DNA of 54,313 nt. It comes from Candidatus Hydrogenedens sp. GTDB lineage: Bacteria > Hydrogenedentota > Hydrogenedentia > Hydrogenedentales > Hydrogenedentaceae. The DNA is taken from the NCBI GenBank assembly GCA_049968235.1, contig JBMFRC010000022.1, positions 1 through 54,313 on the forward strand, in the 5' to 3' direction. The position numbers and the translations under genes are program-made. Under the pieces are notes generated by a model that ran no database searches, was not told the origin of the DNA, and was given only the letters and a program-made list of their open reading frames with translations. Within the stretch, counting starts at the first letter, position 1, and each line of letters starts with the position of its first letter. This document shows, in pieces, positions 2 through 54,313 of this stretch.

Positions 2-697
2 GCAGGCTGGACAAATCAAAATAGAGGAAAAGAAAATGCAGAGGAGTTTATTAAAAAAAGTTTTCCTTCATTGATGGAATACTTAAAACAATATGAAGAG
101 AAAGCAAAAAAACGAGATGACCAAGGCGATTATTGGTGGGAACTTCGCAAATGTGCCTACTACCCCGAGTTTGAGAAGGAGAAGATTATTTACATTGAAA
201 TAATGACCGATAATTGGGAAGAAGGTTATGAATTTCCATGTTATACATATAGAAATGACACATGCTTTGTCTTAAATACCGCCTACATTATGACAGGTAA
301 AAATTTAAAATATATACTTGGATTATTGAATTCTAAATTTGGTAGTTATTTGGTAAAGCAACATGTTACTCAGCTTCAAAAAAGGCAATTTAGAATGTTG
401 GCACAATATGTAAACAATTTTGAGATTTCCCCCATCACGTCAGGGAACGAGGGCTTGGTGAAGCGTATAGAGGAACTCGTAGATAAAATCCTGGCGGCAA
501 AGAAAGATAACCCGCAGGCGGATACAAAAAATTTTGAAGAGGAAATAGACAAGCTTGTTTATAAATTGTATAATTTAACGGAAGAGGAGATAAGGATAAT
601 TGAAGGAGGGGAAATAACTCCGTGCTACTCCGTGGAGAGAGAAAAAAAATACTCCACCACAGAGACACAGAGAAACATAGAGAAGCAAAAGGGATGA
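2..697 (+). CDS. 5'-truncated CDS: C-terminal TaqI-like target-recognition domain of a type IIG restriction enzyme / N6-adenine DNA methyltransferase (Eco57I/PglX-like)
   Basis: The reading frame is open from the window edge (AGWTNQNRGKENAEEFIKK...) into the tracked ORF. Motifs such as YIMTGKNLKYILGLLNSKFGSYL and DYWWEL are typical of the TaqI_C specificity domain found at the C-terminus of type IIG RM / BREX PglX methylases. Confidence 0.5.
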   Translation, partial: AGWTNQNRGKENAEEFIKKSFPSLMEYLKQYEEKAKKRDDQGDYWWELRKCAYYPEFEKEKIIYIEIMTDNWEEGYEFPCYTYRNDTCFVLNTAYIMTGKNLKYILGLLNSKFGSYLVKQHVTQLQKRQFRMLAQYVNNFEISPITSGNEGLVKRIEELVDKILAAKKDNPQADTKNFEEEIDKLVYKLYNLTEEEIRIIEGGEITPCYSVEREKKYSTTETQRNIEKQKG

Positions 698-4507: not shown

Positions 4508-7500
4508 TGAATTTGTTCATTTACATACACATTCTGAATATAGCATATTGGACGGAATGTCAAAGATTGAGGATTTAATTCGCCTTTGCTATAAGTATCG
4601 TATGCCTGCGTTAGCATTGACAGAGCATGGGAACATGTTTAGCACAGTCCCCTTTTATAGAACTTTGAAAAAATTGAAGTCGGGGAGTGATTTTCAACTC
4701 AAACAAATCATTGGTGCGGAATTGTATGTGGCCCCTGAAAGCAGGACTGATAAAAAAGCAAAAGAATTTGACCGGAGTTATTATCATCTTCTCTTACTAT
4801 GTGAAAATGAAATAGGGTATAAAAATCTCTGTCGATTAATTACCACAGGCTATATGGATGGTTTTTATATTAAACCTCGAGTGGATATGGAATTGTTATC
4901 GGAATGTCATGAGGGATTAATTGTAAGTAGTGCCTGTATTAGCAGTCGAATTGCAAAAGCCATTTATTATGATAAGAAGGATATGGCTGTAGATACATTG
5001 AATAAACTTATAGATATATTTGGGAAGGACCATGTATTTTTAGAAATTATGTATCATTCTTTGCCGGATGAGGACAAGGTAAACAGCGGTATTATCGAAT
5101 TATCAAAAAGATATTCCATTCCGTTGATTGCAACTCAGGATTCCCATTATACAAATCCGGATGATGCGGAAGCGCATGAAGTATTATTGTGCATTCAATC
5201 ACAAACGACACTGATGAATGAAAATCGGTGGCGATTTGGTAGTAATGAATTTTACTTTCGCAGTCCACAAGAGATGTACGAGATATTTAAGGATTATCCG
5301 GAAGCGTGCAAGAATACAGTCCGGGTCGCAGAGATGTGCAAAAGTGATATTATTAAAAAACATGATTTAATTCCTAAATACAAACCCGAAGATAATTCGG
5401 ATAGTTATACTTTTTTGAGAAAATTGATTGATGAAGGATTTAAGAAGAGATTTGGTGATAAAATTCCACCGGGTTATAAAGAGCGTGCGGAGTATGAATT
5501 ATCTGTAATTGAACAATTAAAATTTGTAGATTATTTTCTTGTGGTATGGGACATTGTCCATTTTGCCCGAACACGGGGTATTCCTGTGGGTCCGGGTAGG
5601 GGTTCTGCGGCAGGGAGTCTCGTGGCGTATCTTCTGGAAATCACGGATGTTGACCCTATCCGCTATCAACTCCTGTTTGAGCGATTTTTAAATCCGCAAC
5701 GCGTGAGTATGCCTGATATCGATATAGACTTTGCAGATGACCGTCGGATGGAGCTTGTCAAATATGCAATTCAGAAATATGGGCAGGAGAATGTCGCACT
5801 TATTGCAACATTTCAACGCTCAATGGCAAAGAATGTTATCCGTGATGTAGGTCGTGTGCTGGGTATCAATTATGGGGAAGTTGACGAGATTGCGAAGATG
5901 ATTCCCAAAGGGGCACATAACTTGAATGAAGCTATGCAAAAGGAGCCAGAACTAAAAAAGCGAATAGAATCGGAACCTAACTTACAGCGATTATGGAAAT
6001 TAGCCCTGAAATTAGAAGGGACTGTCCGTAATTCCGGTATACATGCGGCAGGGGTTGTTATCTGCGATAAACCGATTGTTAATTATATTGCTACTTTCAA
6101 AGACAAAAATTCTGAGTTTATATCCACGCAGGCAGAAAAGGAGTGTGTGGAGGAATTAGGTTTATTAAAAATGGACTTCTTAGCCCTAAAAACATTGAGC
6201 GTTATTCAAAACGCATTAAAATTGATAAAAAAACATAAAGGCATTGATTTAAATATAAACGAAATCCCTCTGAATGATGAAAAAGTATATAAGATGCTTC
6301 AAGATGGAAATACATTAGGCGTGTTCCAATTAGAAAGTGGAGGAATGAGAAAAACTGTGGTTCAATTAAAGACGCAGTCATTTGAGGAAATCACCGCTCT
6401 GGTGGCACTATACCGTCCCGGACCCATGAGGTATACGGATGTATTTATTGAGAACAAACTGAATCCAGCAAGGATTCAATACTGGCATCCGATGTTGGAA
6501 CCTATCGTGAAAGAGACCTATGGAATACCTATCTATCAGGAGCAGGTCATGCAAATAGCCCAACTTTGTGCCGGTTTCTCATTACCCGAATCAGATATGT
6601 TGCGTCAGGGTATGGCTAAAAAGAAAGCGGATATTGTAGAAGCGAGACGGTTACCGTTCATTGAGGGCTGTGTAAAAAACGGAATTGATAAACAAACTGC
6701 GGAACAAATTTTTGCCAATATTGAGGATTTTGCCAATTACGGTTTTAACAAATCCCACAGTGTTGCATACGGAATTCTGGTCTATCAAACTGCCTATTTG
6801 AAAGCGAACTATCCCGAAGAGTATATGTGTGCATTGTTAAATAAGGAAGTAGAAAACCTTGATAAAATCTCCCTGTATATTCAGGAATGCAACCGGATGG
6901 GTATTTCCATACTTCCGCCGGATGTAAATAAGAGTGAGGCAGATTTTTCAATTGAAGATAAAGCCATCCGTTTTGGATTGAGTGTTATCAAAAATGTTGG
7001 TACAGGTGTTTGCGAATTAATTGTGAACGAGCGAGAACAACACGGTCCTTATAAAGATATTTTTGATTTCTGTTGCCGACTGAATCCACGACAAATCAAT
7101 AGGCGAGTGCTTGAAAATTTGATTAAAGCAGGGGCAATGGATTCATTCGGGCTAACTCGAAAAAGCCTTTTCGAAATGATAAATGTAGCCATTGCAGAGA
7201 CTCAACTCATCAGCAAAGAACGCTCCTCCGGACAAATAAGCCTTTTTGGTGAGGTCCCCATTACAACTTTCAATAACAATATCCGCAATGAAATTATCCA
7301 GAAGGAAGAATGGCACTTATTGCAGAAACTCTCTTATGAGAAGGAAGTAATAGGAATCTATATCTCGGGACACCCATTAGAGCAATATAAAGATATGTTA
7401 AAATTATGGACTACACCCAACGATATTATTGAAAAGAAACAGGAAGGCGAAGATATAATTTTTGGAGGCATCATTTCTGAAATTAAATATTATGACAGTG

Positions 7501-7982
7501 CGAAGGGGAGAATGGCTTTTGTTAAATTGGACAATACCGAACAGCAATATGAAATAACATGCTTCGCAGATACCTATGAAAGGTCAAAGGATTTGATAAA
7601 TGAAGGAAATATAGTGCTAATTCATGCACGCGTTAATTGTAGAAATTCAAAACGCGGATATATCGCTCGTATGATTATTCCTCCCGATGAGTGTATGATT
7701 TTTGCCCGTACTTTCCATATTCGGGTGGATTCTACAATCAATGAGGATACTTACGAAAAAATCATGGATATATTCGCACATAATTCCGGTGACTGTGATG
7801 TCTTTTTTCACTATCAGGATTTTGCAAAACAAAGAGAAATCATTATTCAGGCAAATCTGGGTATAAAAGTTCCGGCTAAAATACAAATTATTGCTGAGAT
7901 AGAAAAAATTATAGGGGAAAAGAACGCATGGTTTAGTGCAGGAAATTTATTGCCTGTATCTTATAACGGGAAAAGTAGATAA
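4500..7982 (+). CDS. dnaE: DNA polymerase III alpha subunit
   Basis: FVHLHTHSEYSILDG PHP domain, polymerase core and OB fold; 1160 aa. Confidence 0.95.
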   Translation: MNNEFVHLHTHSEYSILDGMSKIEDLIRLCYKYRMPALALTEHGNMFSTVPFYRTLKKLKSGSDFQLKQIIGAELYVAPESRTDKKAKEFDRSYYHLLLLCENEIGYKNLCRLITTGYMDGFYIKPRVDMELLSECHEGLIVSSACISSRIAKAIYYDKKDMAVDTLNKLIDIFGKDHVFLEIMYHSLPDEDKVNSGIIELSKRYSIPLIATQDSHYTNPDDAEAHEVLLCIQSQTTLMNENRWRFGSNEFYFRSPQEMYEIFKDYPEACKNTVRVAEMCKSDIIKKHDLIPKYKPEDNSDSYTFLRKLIDEGFKKRFGDKIPPGYKERAEYELSVIEQLKFVDYFLVVWDIVHFARTRGIPVGPGRGSAAGSLVAYLLEITDVDPIRYQLLFERFLNPQRVSMPDIDIDFADDRRMELVKYAIQKYGQENVALIATFQRSMAKNVIRDVGRVLGINYGEVDEIAKMIPKGAHNLNEAMQKEPELKKRIESEPNLQRLWKLALKLEGTVRNSGIHAAGVVICDKPIVNYIATFKDKNSEFISTQAEKECVEELGLLKMDFLALKTLSVIQNALKLIKKHKGIDLNINEIPLNDEKVYKMLQDGNTLGVFQLESGGMRKTVVQLKTQSFEEITALVALYRPGPMRYTDVFIENKLNPARIQYWHPMLEPIVKETYGIPIYQEQVMQIAQLCAGFSLPESDMLRQGMAKKKADIVEARRLPFIEGCVKNGIDKQTAEQIFANIEDFANYGFNKSHSVAYGILVYQTAYLKANYPEEYMCALLNKEVENLDKISLYIQECNRMGISILPPDVNKSEADFSIEDKAIRFGLSVIKNVGTGVCELIVNEREQHGPYKDIFDFCCRLNPRQINRRVLENLIKAGAMDSFGLTRKSLFEMINVAIAETQLISKERSSGQISLFGEVPITTFNNNIRNEIIQKEEWHLLQKLSYEKEVIGIYISGHPLEQYKDMLKLWTTPNDIIEKKQEGEDIIFGGIISEIKYYDSAKGRMAFVKLDNTEQQYEITCFADTYERSKDLINEGNIVLIHARVNCRNSKRGYIARMIIPPDECMIFARTFHIRVDSTINEDTYEKIMDIFAHNSGDCDVFFHYQDFAKQREIIIQANLGIKVPAKIQIIAEIEKIIGEKNAWFSAGNLLPVSYNGKSR

Positions 7983-8059
7983 ATCTTTTGTCTATTTACA
8001 AGAGAAAGTGTGTATTGCTCTTAAACAAGACTTAAACAGGATATAATGTGGTAAGAAAA

Positions 8060-9379
8060 TTAAAATATGAATTTGAATACCCATGCATGTTGACAGGGGA
8101 TTTGTGCAGGTGAAACGCATGGGGTTGTTATTATCCATTCACCATTGCCATCCTCTATGGGGACTGCTATGTCTGTGCCTAATAGGCTAACCTTTGGCAA
8201 AGTCTGGAATTCGTTGGATTTCGGAATAGCCCATTTCTCAGGAAACCATTTCAAAGCAATGGCATAGATAGTATTTCCCTTACGTGTGAAACGGAAATTT
8301 TCCATCTTCGGAGCGTCTTTCCATACATCCGTTCCGTAGATGGCATCACCGTTAACTTCCAACCATTTGCCCATCTCCAATAACCGTTCCTGCATTATCT
8401 CCGGTATGCGTCCATCTGCGGAGGGACCTATGTCCAAAAGCAGGTTACCCCCGCGTGAGACATTGTCAATCAGCAAATGAAGCAATTCCGTCGTGCTACG
8501 ATAACAATCCGCATCTTCATTCCTATTCAGACCGAATGACTTACCCATACCCTGGCACTCTTCAAACCTACCCTCTTTAATCAAATGCCCATCAGGGATA
8601 CTCCCATACTCAGGTGTTGCAAAACCTCCATGTATATTACGACAATCTTTGCCCCAGCGGTCATTTATGGCAATATCTTTTGGTACAGGCGATTCATTGA
8701 ACAGCCATGCTAAAAACTCTGTGCTACGCCAGACGGAACTCGGATGGTCCCATTCGCCATCAGGCCAGAACACATCCGGTTGATAACGCACTATTAAATC
8801 CTTCATTTGCGGTAGCATGTATTCATCTACATATTTTTTTACATCCGTGTTATATAATGGATTAAACCACTCGTACATACAATAATAAAACCCCATTTTT
8901 AACCCCACTTTCCGAACGGCAGTTATTAAATCGCCCGCTAAATCTCGATGTGGACCTATATCCACAGAATTCCAATTCCAACTATGAGGTGCCTGCCAGA
9001 GACAGAAACCCTCAACATGCTTCGAAGTCAATACGACATACTTTGCCCCCGACCTTTTAAATATATCTGCCCATTGGTCCGGGTCAAAAAGTTCCGCCTT
9101 GAACATCGGAGCGAAGTCCTGATACTTAAATCTTTCACCATATTTATCCTTATGAAACTTCCATGTTTGGCTGTTTTTATCCTCCATGTAATACCAATAC
9201 CATTCCGCATACTGGTCTTTCGGTCCCCATGAAGGCACAGAATAAACACCCCAATGAATAAAAATTCCAAATTTAGCATCTTCAAACCATTGCGGATTAG
9301 GTCTTTGGTCTAACGATTCCCATGTCGGTTCATATCCTGCACAAATGCCTGTGCAGATAAAAATAAGCAATAAATTCAT
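8060..9379 (-). CDS. alpha-L-fucosidase (GH29), secreted
   Basis: Signal peptide MNLLLIFICTGICAG, then FGIFIHWGVYSVPSWG and YVVLTSKHVEGFCLW, which match GH29 signatures. Confidence 0.85.
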   Translation of the reverse strand: MNLLLIFICTGICAGYEPTWESLDQRPNPQWFEDAKFGIFIHWGVYSVPSWGPKDQYAEWYWYYMEDKNSQTWKFHKDKYGERFKYQDFAPMFKAELFDPDQWADIFKRSGAKYVVLTSKHVEGFCLWQAPHSWNWNSVDIGPHRDLAGDLITAVRKVGLKMGFYYCMYEWFNPLYNTDVKKYVDEYMLPQMKDLIVRYQPDVFWPDGEWDHPSSVWRSTEFLAWLFNESPVPKDIAINDRWGKDCRNIHGGFATPEYGSIPDGHLIKEGRFEECQGMGKSFGLNRNEDADCYRSTTELLHLLIDNVSRGGNLLLDIGPSADGRIPEIMQERLLEMGKWLEVNGDAIYGTDVWKDAPKMENFRFTRKGNTIYAIALKWFPEKWAIPKSNEFQTLPKVSLLGTDIAVPIEDGNGEWIITTPCVSPAQIPCQHAWVFKFIF

Positions 9380-9836: not shown

Positions 9837-11291
9837 CTATTCCAATCCAAGTCGTTTGATTCTATATTGTAGGGTTGTTCGTTTAATTCCTAATAATTCA
9901 GCGGCACGAGTTTTGTTCCAATGGAACTTTTCTAAGGCTTTGAGGATTAGTTCTCTTTCCAGTCGTTCCGTATGCTGTTCCAGAGAAAGGTCTTCTTTAT
10001 CTTGTTGCTCATTTTTGATTTCGGATTCTACCTGTCGGTTTGTTTCTATATAGTTTTGTAATTCAAAAGGCATCTCATTTATCGTAACCTGAGGTCCTGT
10101 TGCTAAAACGATAGCACGTTCCATTATATTTTCCAATTCGCGGATATTACCGGGCCAGGGGTATCGTAAGAATAAATCAATAACCTCATCATCAACTTCA
10201 TATACCTCTTTTCGCAACTCCATACTAAATTTGTTTAAGAAATGTTCTACCAATGCCGGTATATCATCCGGTCGTTCCTTTAACGGCGGAACGTATATAG
10301 AAAACACGTTTAGGCGATAATAGAAATCTTCACGAAATGTTCCCTGAACAATTGCCTGTCTTAAATCACGATTCGTTGCAGCTACAATCCGCACGTCTAC
10401 TTTAATAGTTTCTGTTCCACCTACGCGTTCGAACTCTCCATCCTGAAGTACGCGTAGTAGTTTTACCTGAACACTGGGGTCAATTTCACCCACTTCATCG
10501 AGGAATAAAGTTCCCTTATGAGCCCGTTCGAATCGCCCTTCCCTTCTTGAAGTAGCCCCTGTAAATGCTCCCTTTTCATGACCGAATAGTTCGCTTTCCA
10601 GTAATGTTGGAGCTAATGACGCACAATTCAATGCGATAAAAGGTTCATCCCGTCGTGGACTTGCTTCGTGGAGAGCCCTTGCTACAAGTTCTTTCCCTAC
10701 ACCACTGGGACCTGTTATTAGAACCGAACTTTTGGTGGGTGCTACTCGTGCAATAATTTGACGTAGTTGTCTTGTTTGTGCACTTTCTCCTACCAGATGT
10801 TGCACAGAGGGATGTATCCATGTCTGGGCTCTGTTCGTATTTTTTATTTGTATTTGTTTTGCCAGTTTGGAAATTTTATTTTGTAAAACCGCCAATTGGA
10901 AGGGCTTTGTAATAAAATCGTGAGCCCCTAATCGCATTGCTTCAACAGCGATTTCGATAGTCCCATATGCGGTGATAATAATTACTTCTGTTTCGGGTGA
11001 TACACTTTTAACATAACGTAGGACATCCATACCTGACTTGCCGGGCATACTTAGGTCTGTAATCACAATGTGATATAAATGACGGGTGATTTTGTCTATA
11101 GCCTCCTCACCCGTAGATGCATTACTTACTTTGTAACCCATTTCCAGGAAAGTTTGAGAAAGCAAATTCCTCATATTTTCCCGGTCATCCACAATAAGAA
11201 TGTGAATAATGGCTTCTTTTTCCTGTGTGTTTGTTGACATATTTTTTAAATTTTCCTTCTCGGTTGGTGCTGAACAAATTGTGTTTTCCAT
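9837..11291 (-). CDS. sigma-54-dependent response regulator (NtrC family: REC + AAA+ + Fis HTH)
   Basis: ILIVDDRENMRNLL receiver domain; ITGPSGVGKELVARALH Walker A; GHEKGAFTGA (GAFTGA motif); C-terminal HTH LLGIKRTTLQYRIKRL. Confidence 0.9.
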   Translation of the reverse strand: MENTICSAPTEKENLKNMSTNTQEKEAIIHILIVDDRENMRNLLSQTFLEMGYKVSNASTGEEAIDKITRHLYHIVITDLSMPGKSGMDVLRYVKSVSPETEVIIITAYGTIEIAVEAMRLGAHDFITKPFQLAVLQNKISKLAKQIQIKNTNRAQTWIHPSVQHLVGESAQTRQLRQIIARVAPTKSSVLITGPSGVGKELVARALHEASPRRDEPFIALNCASLAPTLLESELFGHEKGAFTGATSRREGRFERAHKGTLFLDEVGEIDPSVQVKLLRVLQDGEFERVGGTETIKVDVRIVAATNRDLRQAIVQGTFREDFYYRLNVFSIYVPPLKERPDDIPALVEHFLNKFSMELRKEVYEVDDEVIDLFLRYPWPGNIRELENIMERAIVLATGPQVTINEMPFELQNYIETNRQVESEIKNEQQDKEDLSLEQHTERLERELILKALEKFHWNKTRAAELLGIKRTTLQYRIKRLGLE

Positions 11292-31960: not shown

Positions 31961-32062
31961 ATTTGGATAAAACAAAAAAGCAAGGATAGTAATAACTTCC
32001 TTCAACCACACCTTCAAGGGTGCCTTATTTGGATAAGGCAAAAAAGCAAGGATAGTAATAAC
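31961..32062 (+). repeat. CRISPR-like mini-array: two 36-bp direct repeats (2 mismatches) separated by a unique 30-bp spacer
   Basis: R1 31961..31996 ATTTGGATAAAACAAAAAAGCAAGGATAGTAATAAC; R2 32027..32062 ATTTGGATAAGGCAAAAAAGCAAGGATAGTAATAAC; spacer TTCCTTCAACCACACCTTCAAGGGTGCCTT is not repeated. Confidence 0.3.
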
Positions 32063-48126: not shown

Positions 48127-49497
48127 TCACCCGTAAATAATGCCTAATGGTGGGTATTCCTTCCATTTTCCTCGCGTAAAGTCCGGAAAATCTTGAGGTG
48201 TACCGCGTTGGGCGACAGACCGTTCACTTAATTCTGAAACCACACTCCATGAGGCCGCATCGTAAACATTCAAATCTGTAGGTAAACCTTTGCGGAGACA
48301 TTCAATTAAACGGAAATCCTCAATGAAATCCATTCCACCATGTCCGGCTCCTTTGGCAGAATCCTGCATCGCTTTCCATAAAGGATGTTCCCACTCATTT
48401 GTATAATTCTCCAGAGGCTCAAATTTCTCCTCTTTTGTTAACCCTTCTACGAAAATACGCGGAGGATAATCCATAATGACGCCTTTTGTTCCCTGTACCG
48501 TATTAATTCGGCTGTAAGGACGAGGCAAATTTGTGTCATGCACGATGTATATTGTACATCCATTATAAGTTTTTATAATGCTTAAGTTCACATCCCCTAA
48601 CACATATTTTTCATTTCTACGGGGGTCATCCTCAGGTAGCGTTTTTTGGTATTCTTGGAGGCCTCGAGATTTGCTACTAACAGAAACTAAATACTCAAAC
48701 TGATCTCCGCGATTGATGTTCATATATTGAGCTACGGGTCCCAATCCATGTGTGGGATATAGATTTCCGTTTCGTTTCATCGAATGAGCACGACGCCAGA
48801 GCCCTTCTCCGTCCTTGCTGAATTTTACGCCTCTTAAATCATGTAAATAACCGCATTCTCCATGAATAATCTCGCCTAGCAGTCCCTTGCGGACCATGTG
48901 GAGCATCATTAATTCCGTTCGATTATAGCAACAATTCTCCATCATAACGCAGTGTTTCTTATACTTCTCTGCAGTTTCGACCAATTGCCAGCATTCCTCC
49001 AATGTTACTGCTGCAGGCACTTCCGTCGCTGCATGTTTACCATTTTCCATCGCAGAAACACACACAGGAACATGCCATTCCCATGGTGTTGCTGTGTAAA
49101 CTAAATCTAATTCTTCTGTTTCACACATTTTTTTAAAATCCAATTCCCCATTTGAATAACATGTGGGTTCTGGCTGTCCCGCATCTACAACCATCTTTTT
49201 TACGCGTTCTACTTTTTCAGGAACAATATCACAAACAGCTTTCAGTTGCACACCCTCTATCTTCAATAAATTCCTTACATGATTGGTGCCCATACCTCCT
49301 ACACCAACAAATCCGATGCGAACCGTTTTCATTGGAGGAGCGGAGAAGAGTTCTGCTGGGGCAGGGGCGGTGCGAATGGAATTTGTTGAAGGTTGATTTT
49401 GTGCAGAGCCTTTCATCGCAAATATCATTGATGCGACACCAGAAAGCGATAAAAACGACCTCCGCGAGAATTCAAAATGTGTGGTATCTTTTTTCAT
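48127..49497 (-). CDS. Gfo/Idh/MocA-family NAD-dependent oxidoreductase with twin-arginine signal (GH109-like)
   Basis: Tat motif SRRSFLSLSGVASM; Rossmann motif IGFVGVGGMGTNHV; family-typical EKP and C-terminal domain. Confidence 0.8.
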   Translation of the reverse strand: MKKDTTHFEFSRRSFLSLSGVASMIFAMKGSAQNQPSTNSIRTAPAPAELFSAPPMKTVRIGFVGVGGMGTNHVRNLLKIEGVQLKAVCDIVPEKVERVKKMVVDAGQPEPTCYSNGELDFKKMCETEELDLVYTATPWEWHVPVCVSAMENGKHAATEVPAAVTLEECWQLVETAEKYKKHCVMMENCCYNRTELMMLHMVRKGLLGEIIHGECGYLHDLRGVKFSKDGEGLWRRAHSMKRNGNLYPTHGLGPVAQYMNINRGDQFEYLVSVSSKSRGLQEYQKTLPEDDPRRNEKYVLGDVNLSIIKTYNGCTIYIVHDTNLPRPYSRINTVQGTKGVIMDYPPRIFVEGLTKEEKFEPLENYTNEWEHPLWKAMQDSAKGAGHGGMDFIEDFRLIECLRKGLPTDLNVYDAASWSVVSELSERSVAQRGTPQDFPDFTRGKWKEYPPLGIIYG

Positions 49498-49619
49498 ATT
49501 CCTTGTTCCTTAAAATTTAGTTTAATGATGTTTTTGCTTATTTGTTTGTGAAATTAATAATATACTGTCATAAACATTAAACTTTATTTAAATACAAAAA
49601 ATCAAAAAAGGAAGGAATT

Positions 49620-50036
49620 ATGGATGCTTACTTATTTATTTGCCTCGGAACAAGAGATGTTCAAATAGAAAATTCCATTAATTTAGAAGGGGATTTGCAT
49701 AAAACTTTAGAAGAGTGTAAATATCCATGGAAAGAGAAAGATAAAAACTTTCGTGGGTTAAATGTTCGCAAATTGGGACATTGGTTATATGATAATTTTG
49801 ATAAAGTTAAAGAAATAATTAGAATACCATTAAGTGAACCATTTTTAAATCACATAGAAAATGAAAGTCATACTATAAAACAGATTTATCTTATCGCTAC
49901 GGACCAACAAAAAACAATTGAAGAAAGTGCAAAGGAACATTTAGAAAGAGATACCTGTATAATAGCAGATTTCTTAAAAGAAAAATTTTTCCCGTATTTC
50001 TTTACTAAAAAAAGATGCTTACCCTTCCCGATATAG
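49620..50036 (+). CDS. N-terminal part of a CARF-HEPN (Csm6/Csx1-like) protein. It is out of frame with the next ORF at an A7 tract (50007..50013).
   Basis: The first strand MDAYLFICLGTRDV resembles the CARF beta1 plus G[TS] motif. A 22-bp overlap with the next ORF and insertion of one A fuse the two frames (…FFTKK-K-MLTLPD…). Confidence 0.5.
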   Translation: MDAYLFICLGTRDVQIENSINLEGDLHKTLEECKYPWKEKDKNFRGLNVRKLGHWLYDNFDKVKEIIRIPLSEPFLNHIENESHTIKQIYLIATDQQKTIEESAKEHLERDTCIIADFLKEKFFPYFFTKKRCLPFPI

Positions 50037-51112
50037 TTACTATTACTCTCAATGATCCGCCCAATAGCTATGATTTAATGATAAAAGAATTTAGTGATAA
50101 GTTAGGGAAAATTTATGGAGATAATGAAAATCAATATTTAGTCTGTGCAGAAATTACAGGAGGGACCCCTCACATTAATACATCTATTATTTTAAATTGT
50201 ATCAAATTTTTTAGAAACAAAGTTACATTTATCTATAAACCTGAAAATTCAAACGACATTAGGTCTCTTAATATTGCCAAATATATATTAAGTTCATATG
50301 AACATGAAAATTTAAAACAACTTGTTGAAAGATATGATTTTGATGCAATTGTGCAGAATAAAAATTATTCAGACACAATCGGAAAGTTATCTTTATCTGC
50401 GTGCTATAGAGGAAACTTTGATTTTTTTTTTTATAAGAAAGAAATAGACAAAATGTATGATAATGTACCTAAAAATATGCTTGAGATATTAAGAAATGAT
50501 GCGTCTAAATTATGCGAAAAAGAACCCAATTCAATATTTAATGAACTTTACTGGAATACAGTAATTATGTGGAAGCGAGATGAGTGTGCAAATTTTATAG
50601 GAAGAGTCTGGAGGATTATGGAAGCATCTCTTCAATATTCATTGCTTGAAATTGTAGGATGTACATGGGATGAAATGAAGGAAAACTCAAATAAAAAAAC
50701 TTTTGAAAATAAATTTAGAAAGTGGGCAGAAGAAAATAAAGAGTTTTTAAAATATTTAGAAAAACAACAACATATTGCTCCTAATATGCCTATGCTTATT
50801 GCTTGTATCGATTTTCTTTCAGAGAGGGGACCGAACAGGGATAAATATAAAAATATTCAAAAGTGGGCGCAAAAACTGAGATCTTTTGCAACGATAAGAA
50901 ATAAATCAATTATAGCACATGGTTTTTGTGACATATCTAAGGAGATGATTAAGAATACCCTTGAAGATAAAGAAGAGGATATACTTATTATTGTTAGGTC
51001 ACTGATTGAAAGTGTAGGGATTCAATTGTCGGAGGAGAATCCATTTGATATTTTTAAAGAACTTTTAATAAATATTAATGAACAATATTTGAATGAAACT
51101 CTATATGTTTAA
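50015..51112 (+). CDS. C-terminal part of a CARF-HEPN (Csm6/Csx1-like) protein: CARF core motif plus C-terminal HEPN Rx4-6H motif
   Basis: LVCAEITGGTPHINTSIIL resembles the CARF D/N-x-T-G-G-T-K motif. ATIRNKSIIAHGF contains R-x6-H (HEPN Rx4-6H) about 65 aa from the C-terminus, as in Csm6. This gene looks visibly AT-richer than its neighbours. Confidence 0.5.
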   Translation: MLTLPDIVTITLNDPPNSYDLMIKEFSDKLGKIYGDNENQYLVCAEITGGTPHINTSIILNCIKFFRNKVTFIYKPENSNDIRSLNIAKYILSSYEHENLKQLVERYDFDAIVQNKNYSDTIGKLSLSACYRGNFDFFFYKKEIDKMYDNVPKNMLEILRNDASKLCEKEPNSIFNELYWNTVIMWKRDECANFIGRVWRIMEASLQYSLLEIVGCTWDEMKENSNKKTFENKFRKWAEENKEFLKYLEKQQHIAPNMPMLIACIDFLSERGPNRDKYKNIQKWAQKLRSFATIRNKSIIAHGFCDISKEMIKNTLEDKEEDILIIVRSLIESVGIQLSEENPFDIFKELLININEQYLNETLYV

Positions 51113-52064
51113 CAATCTTAGTTTTACAGTTCAGCGGGTTAGTTTTTTAGCGGAGGAGCCCTTGTTGGTGCCAGAATATAAGGGTTCGATGATTCGTGGT
51201 GCATTGGGTCATGCCTTAAAAAAAGTTTCCTGTGCGTTGAAGAGGTTTACCTGCCCGGAGTGTCCTATTCGTGAAAAATGTGCTTATAGTATGTGCTTTG
51301 AGACTCCTATCCCAAAATCATCAGAGATTATGAAAAAATATCCTAAAGCACCTCATCCCTATATTCTCGAACCCCCTATTGAGTCAAAAGAGCGTTATGA
51401 ACCCGGCGAGGTATTTGAGTGTAATTTAACCCTTGTTGGTAGAGCAAAGGATTTCTTACCGCATTTTATCTATGCACTTGATGTGATGGCTGAGGAAGGT
51501 TTCGGTAGAGGACGAGGAAAATCTAAACTTATATCCCTTGATTATCTTACTCCTGAAAACAAATGGAACGCCCTATATTCGCCTGAGGCAAATGAATTCT
51601 TAGGGGAACCGTATTCCTTCAAGATACAGGATATTTTGCAAAAGAAAGAGCAACTTTTGTTGGATAAGAGAATAGAAATACAATATATAACACCTACACG
51701 ATTAGTTATAGACGGGAATCTCCATGATACGGGAGAAATAGCATATATCCTACCTGGATTACTTCGTAGACTTACTTTGTTGCAATACTTCTTTTGTGGT
51801 GGTTATTTAGAAAAGGATGTGATTTCTCTAGTAGAAGCGGGGAAAAATCTACAACCTTTACATTCTGCATTCCAGTGGCAGGATTGGGTCCGTTATTCAT
51901 CTCGTCAGGATAGAAAAGTAATTATGGGAGGTTTTATAGTGTCGATAGTATATGAGCAAATTCCTTCTGAAATCCTTGAAGTTCTTTGTTGGGGTGAAAG
52001 GTTACATATTGGCAAAGGAACTGTGTTCGGATTAGGTAAATATAATCTTCTGCCTGCAAACTGA
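51093..52064 (+). CDS. Cas6-like RAMP-superfamily protein (solitary, no CRISPR array nearby) with a Cys cluster
   Basis: N-terminal LLVPEYKGSMIRGALGHALKK parallels the Cas6 N-terminal strand-helix (e.g. PfCas6 FKVPYNHQYYLQGLIYNAIKS). The extreme C-terminal glycine-rich loop HIGKGTVFGLGKY follows GxGxxxxxGxG. There is a CxxC...C...C cluster (CPECPIREKCAYSMC). It overlaps the upstream stop by 8-20 bp and sits 4 bp before the next gene. Confidence 0.55.
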   Translation: MKLYMFNNLSFTVQRVSFLAEEPLLVPEYKGSMIRGALGHALKKVSCALKRFTCPECPIREKCAYSMCFETPIPKSSEIMKKYPKAPHPYILEPPIESKERYEPGEVFECNLTLVGRAKDFLPHFIYALDVMAEEGFGRGRGKSKLISLDYLTPENKWNALYSPEANEFLGEPYSFKIQDILQKKEQLLLDKRIEIQYITPTRLVIDGNLHDTGEIAYILPGLLRRLTLLQYFFCGGYLEKDVISLVEAGKNLQPLHSAFQWQDWVRYSSRQDRKVIMGGFIVSIVYEQIPSEILEVLCWGERLHIGKGTVFGLGKYNLLPAN

Positions 52065-52068
52065 CAAC

Positions 52069-53232
52069 ATGTGCGATACGATTGTTTTTGTAGATAGTCA
52101 AAAAGTTTTATTTGCAAAGAATTCGGACCGTGAGGTAAACGAATCTCAGGTTCTTCTCTGGCAACCGCGTAAAAATTACACGAAAAATGAATTACTACAA
52201 TGCACATATATAACCATTCCCCAGGTTCGTGAGACCTATGCCATTTTAGTATGTAAACCTACATGGATGTGGGGTGCTGAAATGGGGACGAATGAGTTTG
52301 GCGTTACTATTGGGAATGAAGCGGTATTTACCAACCAACCTTATGCTAAAACAGGTTTGACAGGGATGGACCTGATTCGTCTTGCTTTAGAACGGTCCAT
52401 CACCGCAAAACAAGCATGTGAAACAATTATTCAACTTATAGAAATTCATGGTCAGGGTGGAAATTGTGGATACAAAAAAACGACCTACTATCACAACAGT
52501 TATATAATCGCAGATACCCAGGAAGCTTATGTTCTTGAAACCGCTGACAAGAAATATGCTGTGGAAAAAGTTTATGGGTGTCGTGCTATTTCCAATGGCT
52601 TGACTATTAAAGATTTTAAGGAAAAATACAGCAGTCAAATTAAAAGTTACTTTACTCGGTGTAATCAACGAAGAAATGCTATGGAACAGTGCAGACAAAA
52701 AACTCTGACCGTATCGGATATGTTTCAACTACTTCGTTCCCATAAGAATGAAAACTATTATCCAGAATATCATTGGTTTCACGGAGGGATGGATGCACCC
52801 TGTATGCATGCGGGCGGACTCTTCCTTAATTATCAGACTACTGCGTCATGGGTTGCAGAACTTACTCCTAAACATTGTGCCTATTGGGTTACTGCAACTT
52901 CAACTCCATGTATCAGTCTATTCAAACCTGTAAATATATCACAACCTTTAAGTAATAAATTTTGTAATACAAAAGGGGAACTTAAAGATTCTTTCTGGTG
53001 GAAACATGAAAAATTCCAACGACTGGTTATGAAAAATCCTTCACAAACCTTTCCTGTTTTTATTGATAAGAAAAATCAGATGGAAAACGAATGGCTTCAA
53101 AAACCCCCAGTCTCTGAAACTGCTTTCCTCACACATGAACAATTACTTTCTCATTGGACCGCACAGATACTTAAACTTAACATACAGGATACCCGTCCTA
53201 TATGGACACGTTACTTCTGGAATAAAATTTAG
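52069..53232 (+). CDS. secernin-like peptidase (MEROPS C69 family, Ntn-hydrolase with Cys2 nucleophile)
   Basis: MCDTIVFV...VLFAKNSDREVNE...PTWMWGAEMGTNEFGVTIGNEAVFT...GMDLIRLALERSITAKQACETIIQLIEIHGQGGN is collinear with eukaryotic secernin / C69 dipeptidase signatures, as far as I recall them (WLWGAEMGANEHGV...; GMDLVRL...HGQGGN). Confidence 0.7.
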   Translation: MCDTIVFVDSQKVLFAKNSDREVNESQVLLWQPRKNYTKNELLQCTYITIPQVRETYAILVCKPTWMWGAEMGTNEFGVTIGNEAVFTNQPYAKTGLTGMDLIRLALERSITAKQACETIIQLIEIHGQGGNCGYKKTTYYHNSYIIADTQEAYVLETADKKYAVEKVYGCRAISNGLTIKDFKEKYSSQIKSYFTRCNQRRNAMEQCRQKTLTVSDMFQLLRSHKNENYYPEYHWFHGGMDAPCMHAGGLFLNYQTTASWVAELTPKHCAYWVTATSTPCISLFKPVNISQPLSNKFCNTKGELKDSFWWKHEKFQRLVMKNPSQTFPVFIDKKNQMENEWLQKPPVSETAFLTHEQLLSHWTAQILKLNIQDTRPIWTRYFWNKI

Positions 53233-53671: not shown

Positions 53672-54283
53672 TTATTTACAAGGATGGTAATTATATTTAT
53701 TACACGGTATGTTATCGGCTGTTTTTATTCGAGAAATTCCCCATATTTTTTTACAGTTTAAATCTAACCATATGACACCCATTATTTGCTTTTGAGTATA
53801 TTCGTCAATATATGTAAAATCTATTTCCCATACATATGAAGAAATATATTGTTTTTCCCCTCTTTTGTCAAACTCGAACTCATTTTTATTCGGGGCGATA
53901 ACTAATTTAGGTATAACATTATCTAATATTTTGGGATTATATGTATTTACATCCAGTTCTTCTTTTATCAGTTCTCTCGCTTTTTGATATATAATTGTTA
54001 TCGGAGGTTCCTCTGGAATATCTACTTTTGTAGGACAAGGAAATTTTCTATAAAAAAATCTTTTAATGGTTTTCTCTGTCTTTGAAAGAGAAACAATAAA
54101 TGTCTGAGAACGGTCAGGAATACCATCCAATGAAAAATATAAAATTATATTAAGTAAATCTTTTGACGAATCGTTTTTTATTTTATAGCAATTTTTATCT
54201 TCCGGGAAATCGAAATATTTTAACAACTTATTAATTTTTTCAATGAAAATTTCTTCTTGCGAAGAAATATCCTTTTCAGACAA
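53672..54283 (-). CDS. hypothetical protein (AT-rich, Lys/Asn-rich)
   Basis: Long ORF with no recognisable motifs. Confidence 0.35.
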   Translation of the reverse strand: MSEKDISSQEEIFIEKINKLLKYFDFPEDKNCYKIKNDSSKDLLNIILYFSLDGIPDRSQTFIVSLSKTEKTIKRFFYRKFPCPTKVDIPEEPPITIIYQKARELIKEELDVNTYNPKILDNVIPKLVIAPNKNEFEFDKRGEKQYISSYVWEIDFTYIDEYTQKQIMGVIWLDLNCKKIWGISRIKTADNIPCNKYNYHPCK

Positions 54284-54313
54284 AGAATCTATTTGCTTTA
54301 AAGAAGTATTATT

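Follow-up and report, generated by a model that had tools for sequence, protein, structure and literature searches.

A csx1–cas6 pair beside a dipeptidase gene in Candidatus Hydrogenedens: a likely detached tail of a type III-A CRISPR–Cas locus

Maintained cas6 genes that lie far from any CRISPR locus are known from Thermus thermophilus HB27, where the stand-alone cas6-2 serves type III systems in trans (PMC12102369), and from Anabaena PCC 7120, where Cas6 enzymes process orphan arrays (bioRxiv 10.1101/2020.04.14.041012). Here we focus on a block of four open reading frames (ORFs) in a metagenome-assembled genome (MAG) of Candidatus Hydrogenedens sp. (locus tags ACP5UA_12150/12155). The stretch analysed, called the window below, is a complete contig of 54,313 bp. 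The block encodes a Csx1 protein split over two ORFs, a Cas6 protein and a secernin-like peptidase (C69 below). We consider it likely that the block is the detached csx1–cas6 tail of a type III-A locus beside an unrelated housekeeping dipeptidase gene. The window Cas6 is similar to the two described cases in being maintained away from a CRISPR locus, and T. thermophilus structures are among its fold matches; it differs from them in belonging to another subfamily (with an AF_1859_N domain and a conserved four-cysteine cluster) and in having kept a csx1 partner, and its action in trans is putative. Its closest solved structure is the Cas6 domain of the Cas6–reverse transcriptase (RT)–Cas1 protein of Marinomonas mediterranea MMB-1 (PDB 6dd5; 2e-6 in the profile search, 1e-12 in the fold search, template modelling score (TM) 0.57), to which it is only 14% identical; the window protein is free-standing, whereas the MMB-1 domain is fused to RT-Cas1.

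The csx1–cas6 pair was found in other genomes as well. A scan of a genome collection with an alignment of 13 Cas6 sequences gave 80 loci, and csx1 was located by tblastn. csx1 is directly upstream of cas6 in L001–L007, L009, L010 and L012–L019, down to ∼42% Cas6 identity (L008 and L011 begin at a contig end, so they are outside this count). In three loci of Hydrogenedentota with high guanine–cytosine (GC) content the pair closes a type III-A locus: the gene order is cas10-csm3-csm4-csm5-CRISPR (13 repeats)-csx1-cas6 in L012, cas10...csm4-csm5-CRISPR (22 repeats)-cas1-cas2-csx1-cas6 in L019 and cas1-cas2-x-csx1-cas6 in L018. The window pair shares with its counterparts in L012 and L019 the gene order, the overlapping csx1–cas6 junction and the predicted CARF-HEPN and the Cas6 architectures, with identities of 42–46% for Cas6 and 26–30% for Csx1; it is unlike them in having no array, effector gene or adaptation gene next to it, in lying between housekeeping genes and in its frameshifted csx1. 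By homology, the window pair corresponds to the distal genes of type III-A loci, and the original prediction was essentially right in its alternative reading, an accessory end left stranded from a type III locus. The association with type III effector genes was seen for the homologs in L012, L018 and L019, but not at the window locus, in L001–L011 or in L016. The last of these is a second solitary csx1–cas6 pair in a different gene context, and therefore the detachment of csx1–cas6 happened more than once. Arrays near Cas6 homologs (L012, L017, L019 and others) have repeats of 36–37 nt ending in ...GGGAT(C/T)GAAAC; more distant Cas6 relatives are often near arrays too, with 36–37-nt repeats that contain a short hairpin and have ATTGAAAC or ATCGAAAC at their end. 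Downstream of the L018 genes are genes for a MzaA-like protein and a UG29-type defence reverse transcriptase (4904-8489, minus strand), which makes the L018 locus a defence island.

The four ORFs of the window block are in one orientation: 49620-50036 (138 amino acids, aa), 50015-51112 (365 aa), 51093-52064 (323 aa) and 52069-53232 (387 aa). ORF1 and ORF2 share 22 bp; the overlap between csx1 and cas6, a translationally coupled pair, is 8 bp with the cas6 start at ATG 51105 and 20 bp with the start at ATG 51093; and 4 bp lie between the cas6 stop codon and the ATG of the C69 gene. Orientation and junctions are as they had been predicted. ORF1 encodes the N-terminal part of a predicted CARF domain, and ORF2 the rest of it together with a HEPN domain. 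ORF1 matches the PADLOC profile CARF_HEPN PDLC01795 (2e-13) and positions 19–87 of the Csx1 profile PDLC01509; ORF2 matches positions 102–435 out of 440 of PDLC01509 (E=4e-49), and CARF_HEPN profiles too. Since the two ORFs tile PDLC01509 consecutively, they are two halves of one protein. Among Pfam families, Csm6-HEPN (PF09670) is matched with 35.3 bits (cut-off 27), whereas CARF (PF22208) stays below its threshold with 20.8–21.5 bits (cut-off 27.5). A search of PDB with the Csx1 sequence gave no match. The relatives encode Csx1 as one intact protein of 506–508 aa. The original prediction of one split CARF-HEPN protein of the Csx1/Csm6 type agrees with the tiling and the PF09670 match.

The product of ORF3 matches the PADLOC Cas6 profile PDLC01477 over its full length (1.2e-86) and the Pfam family CRISPR_Cas6 (PF10040; 37.1 bits, cut-off 25), and scores below the cut-off of the NCBIfam equivalog TIGR01877 (22.8 versus 58.65); PF27225 is recorded for its homologs. 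In the relatives, cas6 is called at 319 aa with the start MFNN.... An AlphaFold model of the protein (predicted local distance difference test (pLDDT) 82, predicted TM (pTM) 0.84) was compared with PDB by Foldseek: the top 28 matches are all Cas6 structures, 6dd5 being the best, and the matches include 4ill, 3zfv and the T. thermophilus structures 4c9d and 4c97. Profile searches and predicted fold, a double ferredoxin-like/RAMP fold whose C-terminal loop is rich in glycine, both identify ORF3 as Cas6, in line with the Cas6-like RAMP of the original prediction. The four-cysteine cluster near the N-terminus, shared within this AF_1859_N-type Cas6 subfamily, looks like a possible metal-binding insertion; model pLDDT is <50 at residues 50–54.

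An intact csx1 reading frame is absent in the window and present in the relatives. The frame is lost at a run of seven As: with one A added, or after a −1 slip on A AAA AAG, the sequence yields a 497-aa protein containing ...FFTKKKMLTLPDIV..., which can be aligned with the intact relatives. The same split is found in two sibling MAGs. In one of them (ACP5KS) an identical 138-aa product is annotated together with a near-identical 365-aa product; in the other (ACP5QY) ORF2 has the same start and csx1 has a further break at a T11 run (products P0302 and P0300). The corresponding T11 homopolymer of the window (50422-50432) encodes FFF and is in frame. ORFs of the contig contain a further 38 homopolymers with a length of 6 bases or more (37 with 7 or more), all of which are read through. 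Because the split recurs in both sibling MAGs and the other homopolymers are read through, the frameshift is probably real, and csx1 is probably a pseudogene in the species of the window. It is conceivable that slippage on A AAA AAG occasionally rescues csx1. Programmed recoding at this site as a conserved signal was judged unlikely, as the relatives have no A-run at this position. On the evidence of these reading frames, this species is probably losing csx1 but retaining cas6.

The genes of the block are under different degrees of constraint. Across the relatives, the ratio of nonsynonymous to synonymous substitution rates (dN/dS) is 0.01–0.065 for the upstream oxidoreductase gene (GFO below), 0.05–0.09 for cas6, 0.075–0.12 for the C69 gene and 0.14–0.36 for csx1. 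Between most relatives dS has nearly reached or has passed saturation; csx1, cas6 and the C69 gene are nonetheless intact in them, which for csx1 was seen in relatives of five or more other lineages (L001, L002, L004, L007 and L010). In the close clade (L001, L002 and L004), Cas6 has an amino-acid identity of 80–91% versus 69–74% for the dipeptidase. The original prediction had spoken of a degraded locus: this is so for csx1, frameshifted in the window species, but not for cas6, which is intact and strongly constrained across the clade. Between the window (48127-53232) and L002, dS is 0.61 for GFO, 0.71 for csx1, 1.46 for cas6 and 2.05 for the C69 gene; such several-fold differences between adjacent genes (window versus L002, and L001/L004) hint at possible recombination within the block.

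csm genes are found elsewhere in the genus. Low-GC (34%) Hydrogenedens contigs (L089–L094) carry rtcR-cas10-csm2-csm3-csm4, and the first gene of these type III-A loci, immediately preceding cas10, encodes an RtcR-like CARF-sigma54 activator of full length (e.g. L093, 8054-14209). All six contigs, which are independent, break within csm2–csm4, which suggests an assembly-breaking feature or strain variation. One Hydrogenedens MAG probably holds both a cas6–C69 pair and a separate cas10/csm locus, on different contigs: the Cas10 protein HOQ31673.1 is 1,920 numbers apart from the C69 protein HOQ33592.1 and its adjacent Cas6 HOQ33593.1 in one third party annotation (TPA) series of 'Candidatus Hydrogenedens sp.'.

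The explanation that we favour builds on homology, synteny, the selection pattern, the frameshift and the csm loci of the genus; from these we infer action in trans, RNA cleavage and activation by cyclic oligoadenylate (cOA). The pair would have come to stand between the GFO gene and the dipeptidase gene in an ancestor of the low-GC Candidatus Hydrogenedens clade; the simplest history would be an insertion of csx1–cas6 upstream of a resident dipeptidase gene, followed by vertical inheritance. Given that one MAG probably holds both a cas6–C69 pair and a cas10/csm locus, and given the precedent of T. thermophilus HB27, it is most likely that Cas6 and Csx1 act in trans for a Csm system encoded elsewhere. 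Cas6 would cut repeat-containing precursor CRISPR RNA (crRNA) from arrays elsewhere in the genome and provide the crRNA for a Csm effector whose genes are at another locus, and Csx1, where intact, would be the cOA-activated HEPN RNase of that Csm system. In the species of the window csx1 would be a pseudogene, at best partly rescued by slippage, next to an intact cas6. The short cas6–C69 gap would reflect operon packing after the insertion, with C69 being a housekeeping dipeptidase.

Several observations weigh against this explanation. No cas10 and no CRISPR array is tied to the MAG of the window, of which the data comprise this contig, and the Hydrogenedens-type Cas10 matches include none with the accession series of this MAG. 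All six csm contigs (L089–L094) end within csm2–csm4, so that a cas6 or csm6 of their own further downstream would not be visible, and the assignment of the HOQ accessions to a single MAG was inferred from accession proximity. The tight cas6–C69 spacing, moreover, suggests that the two genes are co-transcribed, and they may to some extent be co-regulated.

The fourth ORF probably encodes, as had been predicted, a secernin-like C69 N-terminal nucleophile (Ntn) hydrolase. It passes the cut-off of the related C45/AAT family (Pfam AAT, PF03417; 27.5 versus 23.2), falls narrowly below that of Peptidase_C69 (PF03577; 22.5 versus 23) and is below that of the NCBIfam model C45_proenzyme (31 versus 85); for close homologs a PF03577 match is precomputed, and their names are C69 dipeptidase or secernin. 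The protein starts with MCDT, and removal of the methionine would expose Cys2, the predicted nucleophile cysteine. There are 7,889 homologs, with many in Hydrogenedentota and Planctomycetota, and they go by the names dipeptidase, secernin, peptidase U34 or C69 dipeptidase; the identity to homologs declines smoothly from 98% to about 50%, with no distinct CRISPR-linked subfamily. In its Pfam and NCBIfam matches, its Met-Cys start and its thousands of like-named homologs ORF4 is similar to the secernin/C69/C45 dipeptidases; it differs in that a sequence search of PDB gave no match, so no solved structure is detectable by sequence. A CRISPR link is neither known nor was one detected.

The original prediction combined sensor-RNase (Csx1), RAMP (Cas6) and peptidase (C69) into one signal-activated RNase/protease module for abortive infection. 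The three genes are indeed co-oriented and closely spaced, and seven or more loci have kept the trio, with C69 identities of 57–74%. But the C69 gene adjoins cas6 only in L001–L011 (Cas6 at least 54% identical), i.e. in the low-GC Hydrogenedens clade, and no C69 gene was found within 10 kb of cas6 in L012–L088, which include csx1–cas6 pairs at 42–46% Cas6 identity; the trio recurs in this clade and was not found beyond it. L001–L011 also share the GFO gene and, partly, an HtrA gene upstream and a PI-PLC gene downstream (the GFO protein is 81–92% identical, with its position unchanged, in L001, L002, L004, L007, L009 and L010). Because the trio loci share these flanks, the trio is one inherited syntenic block, and descent can explain its conservation; co-occurrence of C69 with CRISPR or CARF genes was confined to this one syntenic clade. 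C69 homologs are counted in thousands, whereas the Cas6 family is rare, and the csx1–cas6 pair belongs to type III-A loci elsewhere. In L095–L097, C69 occurs with no cas genes beside it. In another Hydrogenedens MAG, a 51%-identical C69 homolog is encoded after an Exo_endo_phos gene, with a GFO gene ∼3 kb upstream and no cas genes. A PADLOC defence search with the C69 protein gave just one marginal match (E=0.019). The likeness to Craspase (Cas7-11/Csx29), CalpL and SAVED-CHAT is superficial, consisting of a RAMP-fold protein encoded beside a peptidase: C69 is not caspase-like, Lon or CHAT and has no sensor domain, its adjacency is lineage-specific, and Cas6 is a processing nuclease, unlike the effector backbone of the RAMP–protease systems. 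C69 is a neighbour of the CRISPR-derived pair and not a functional partner, and we regard the predicted module as very improbable.

Two other readings leave C69 aside or give it a minor part. The pair may be the decaying remnant of a lost type III-A locus, with the immunity function gone and the genes heading for deletion, as could be argued from the csx1 frameshift in the window and two sibling MAGs (one with a second break), from the faster evolution of csx1 than of its neighbours, from the 54 kb being free of arrays and effector genes, and from Cas10 of the window MAG's accession series not being seen among the Cas10 matches. This is unlikely in our view, as every relative has an unbroken cas6 despite saturated dS, the dN/dS of cas6 is low, Cas6 is better conserved than the adjacent housekeeping peptidase, csx1 is intact in at least five other lineages and csm loci exist in the genus. 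The constraint on cas6, unusually strong for a Cas protein, would also fit a domesticated Cas6, with or without Csx1: long kept in the Hydrogenedens lineage as a stand-alone protein, it would have gained an effector-independent role outside CRISPR, for example in processing host transcripts, possibly co-expressed with the dipeptidase. The independent stand-alone csx1–cas6 pair of L016 in another context, the persistence of the pair in the window species despite the broken csx1 and the tight cas6–C69 junction (the spacing is 3–17 bp in the loci checked, except for 53 bp in L007) all point in this direction; however, no candidate substrate was found, the sole repeat of the window with CRISPR-like dimensions (31961-32062) being unlike the repeats of the Cas6 family and not found elsewhere, and the csm loci in the genus make the standard role available. 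We hold such a new role to be distinctly improbable, and retain the detached type III-A tail as the likely explanation.

The rest of the window provides no further CRISPR–Cas parts, as had been predicted, and exact look-ups with the C69, Cas6 and GFO proteins yielded no contig that would extend it. Among the other 38 window ORFs with 120 aa or more, a PADLOC scan detected no cas10, cas7, cas5, cas1, cas2 or CD-NTase gene; its matches are generic AAA+, UvrD, radical-SAM and protease domains and the stump of a type IIG gene only. No CRISPR array was found in the 54-kb window or in L001–L011, and no relics of repeats of the Cas6-family type were found in the window with up to 3 mismatches. An Rfam scan of the window gave two tRNAs only. 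The type IIG gene (71-697, plus strand) codes for just the C-terminal stump of a restriction-methyltransferase, matching positions 1073–1246 out of 1247 in the PADLOC profile REase_MTase_IIG (6e-39); the start of the contig may have truncated it. A sigma-54-dependent response regulator (9837-11291, minus strand) matches the PADLOC RtcR_PspF profiles over its AAA+/HTH part only (residues 141–483); it has no match to their CARF part, hence is no cOA sensor.

Two 36-nt direct repeats (94% identical) at 31961-31996 and 32027-32062 have CRISPR-like dimensions, with two copies and a 30-nt spacer, and occupy a 1.3-kb non-coding gap between a gene that we take, from its translation, to be pheA-like and a queC-like gene (PADLOC QueC match). 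They were considered as a mini CRISPR array (by eye of the Poribacteria type, CTTTGGATAG...GAAAC) and rejected: the alignment of the repeat with 19 Cas6-family repeats was no better than that of shuffles or of random 36-mers of the window, the spacer had no match in viral contigs, and two patterns made from the repeat found nothing in metagenome contigs.

Both genes flanking the block are on the opposite strand, as predicted: the GFO gene upstream and, downstream, a 203-aa ORF (53672-54283, minus strand) with no Pfam or PADLOC match. The tail of the contig from 53233 to its end at 54313 is strongly AT-rich, with a GC content of 0.24–0.33. Within the window, the GC content is 0.29 for csx1, 0.38–0.39 for cas6 and the C69 gene and 0.43 for the upstream gene. 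The AT-richness of the CARF-HEPN part had been noted correctly, and horizontal acquisition had been suggested from it. Across all relatives csx1 has a GC content of 0.29–0.33, versus 0.35–0.41 for cas6 and the C69 gene. Since csx1 is equally AT-rich in every relative, its low GC was rejected as an indicator of recent transfer; AT-richness is an old property of csx1 and no sign of recent acquisition. The coordinates of the features are listed in Table 1.

Table 1. Features of the csx1–cas6–C69 block and its upstream boundary in the window
Feature	Coordinates	Strand	Basis or remark
GFO/IDH/MocA-type oxidoreductase gene (GFO)	48127..49497	-	conserved upstream boundary of the putative insertion in the Hydrogenedens clade
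csx1 (CARF-HEPN, Csm6/Csx1 family), frameshifted	49620..51112	+	PADLOC Csx1 PDLC01509, Pfam PF09670
A7 homopolymer at the frameshift	50007..50013	+	ORF2 in -1 frame relative to ORF1; alignment to intact relatives
HEPN R-X6-H motif RNKSIIAH	50897..50920	+	within the PF09670 match; R and H conserved in all aligned relatives
cas6	51105..52064	+	319 aa from ATG 51105 (alternative ATG 51093: 323 aa); PADLOC/Pfam Cas6
Cas6 N-terminal motif VPEYKGSMIRGALGHAL	51168-51218	+	
Cas6 four-cysteine cluster, residues 47-63	51231-51281	+	C47, C54, C57 and C63 (near-)invariant across 28 homologs
Cas6 G-rich loop GKGTVFGLG	52011-52037	+	G307, K308, G313 and G315 invariant in 28 homologs
Secernin-like C69/C45 Ntn-hydrolase (dipeptidase) gene	52069..53232	+	PF03417; homolog names

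The analysis removes a false lead, as there is no new RNase/RAMP/protease defence architecture at this locus. What it documents instead is, in all likelihood, a case of a type III-A csx1–cas6 tail that has been inherited in a detached state over a long divergence, with cas6 constrained throughout and csx1 probably eroding in one species. This bears on the sharing of type III ancillary genes in trans, and on the annotation of 'orphan' cas genes in MAGs of an uncultured phylum.

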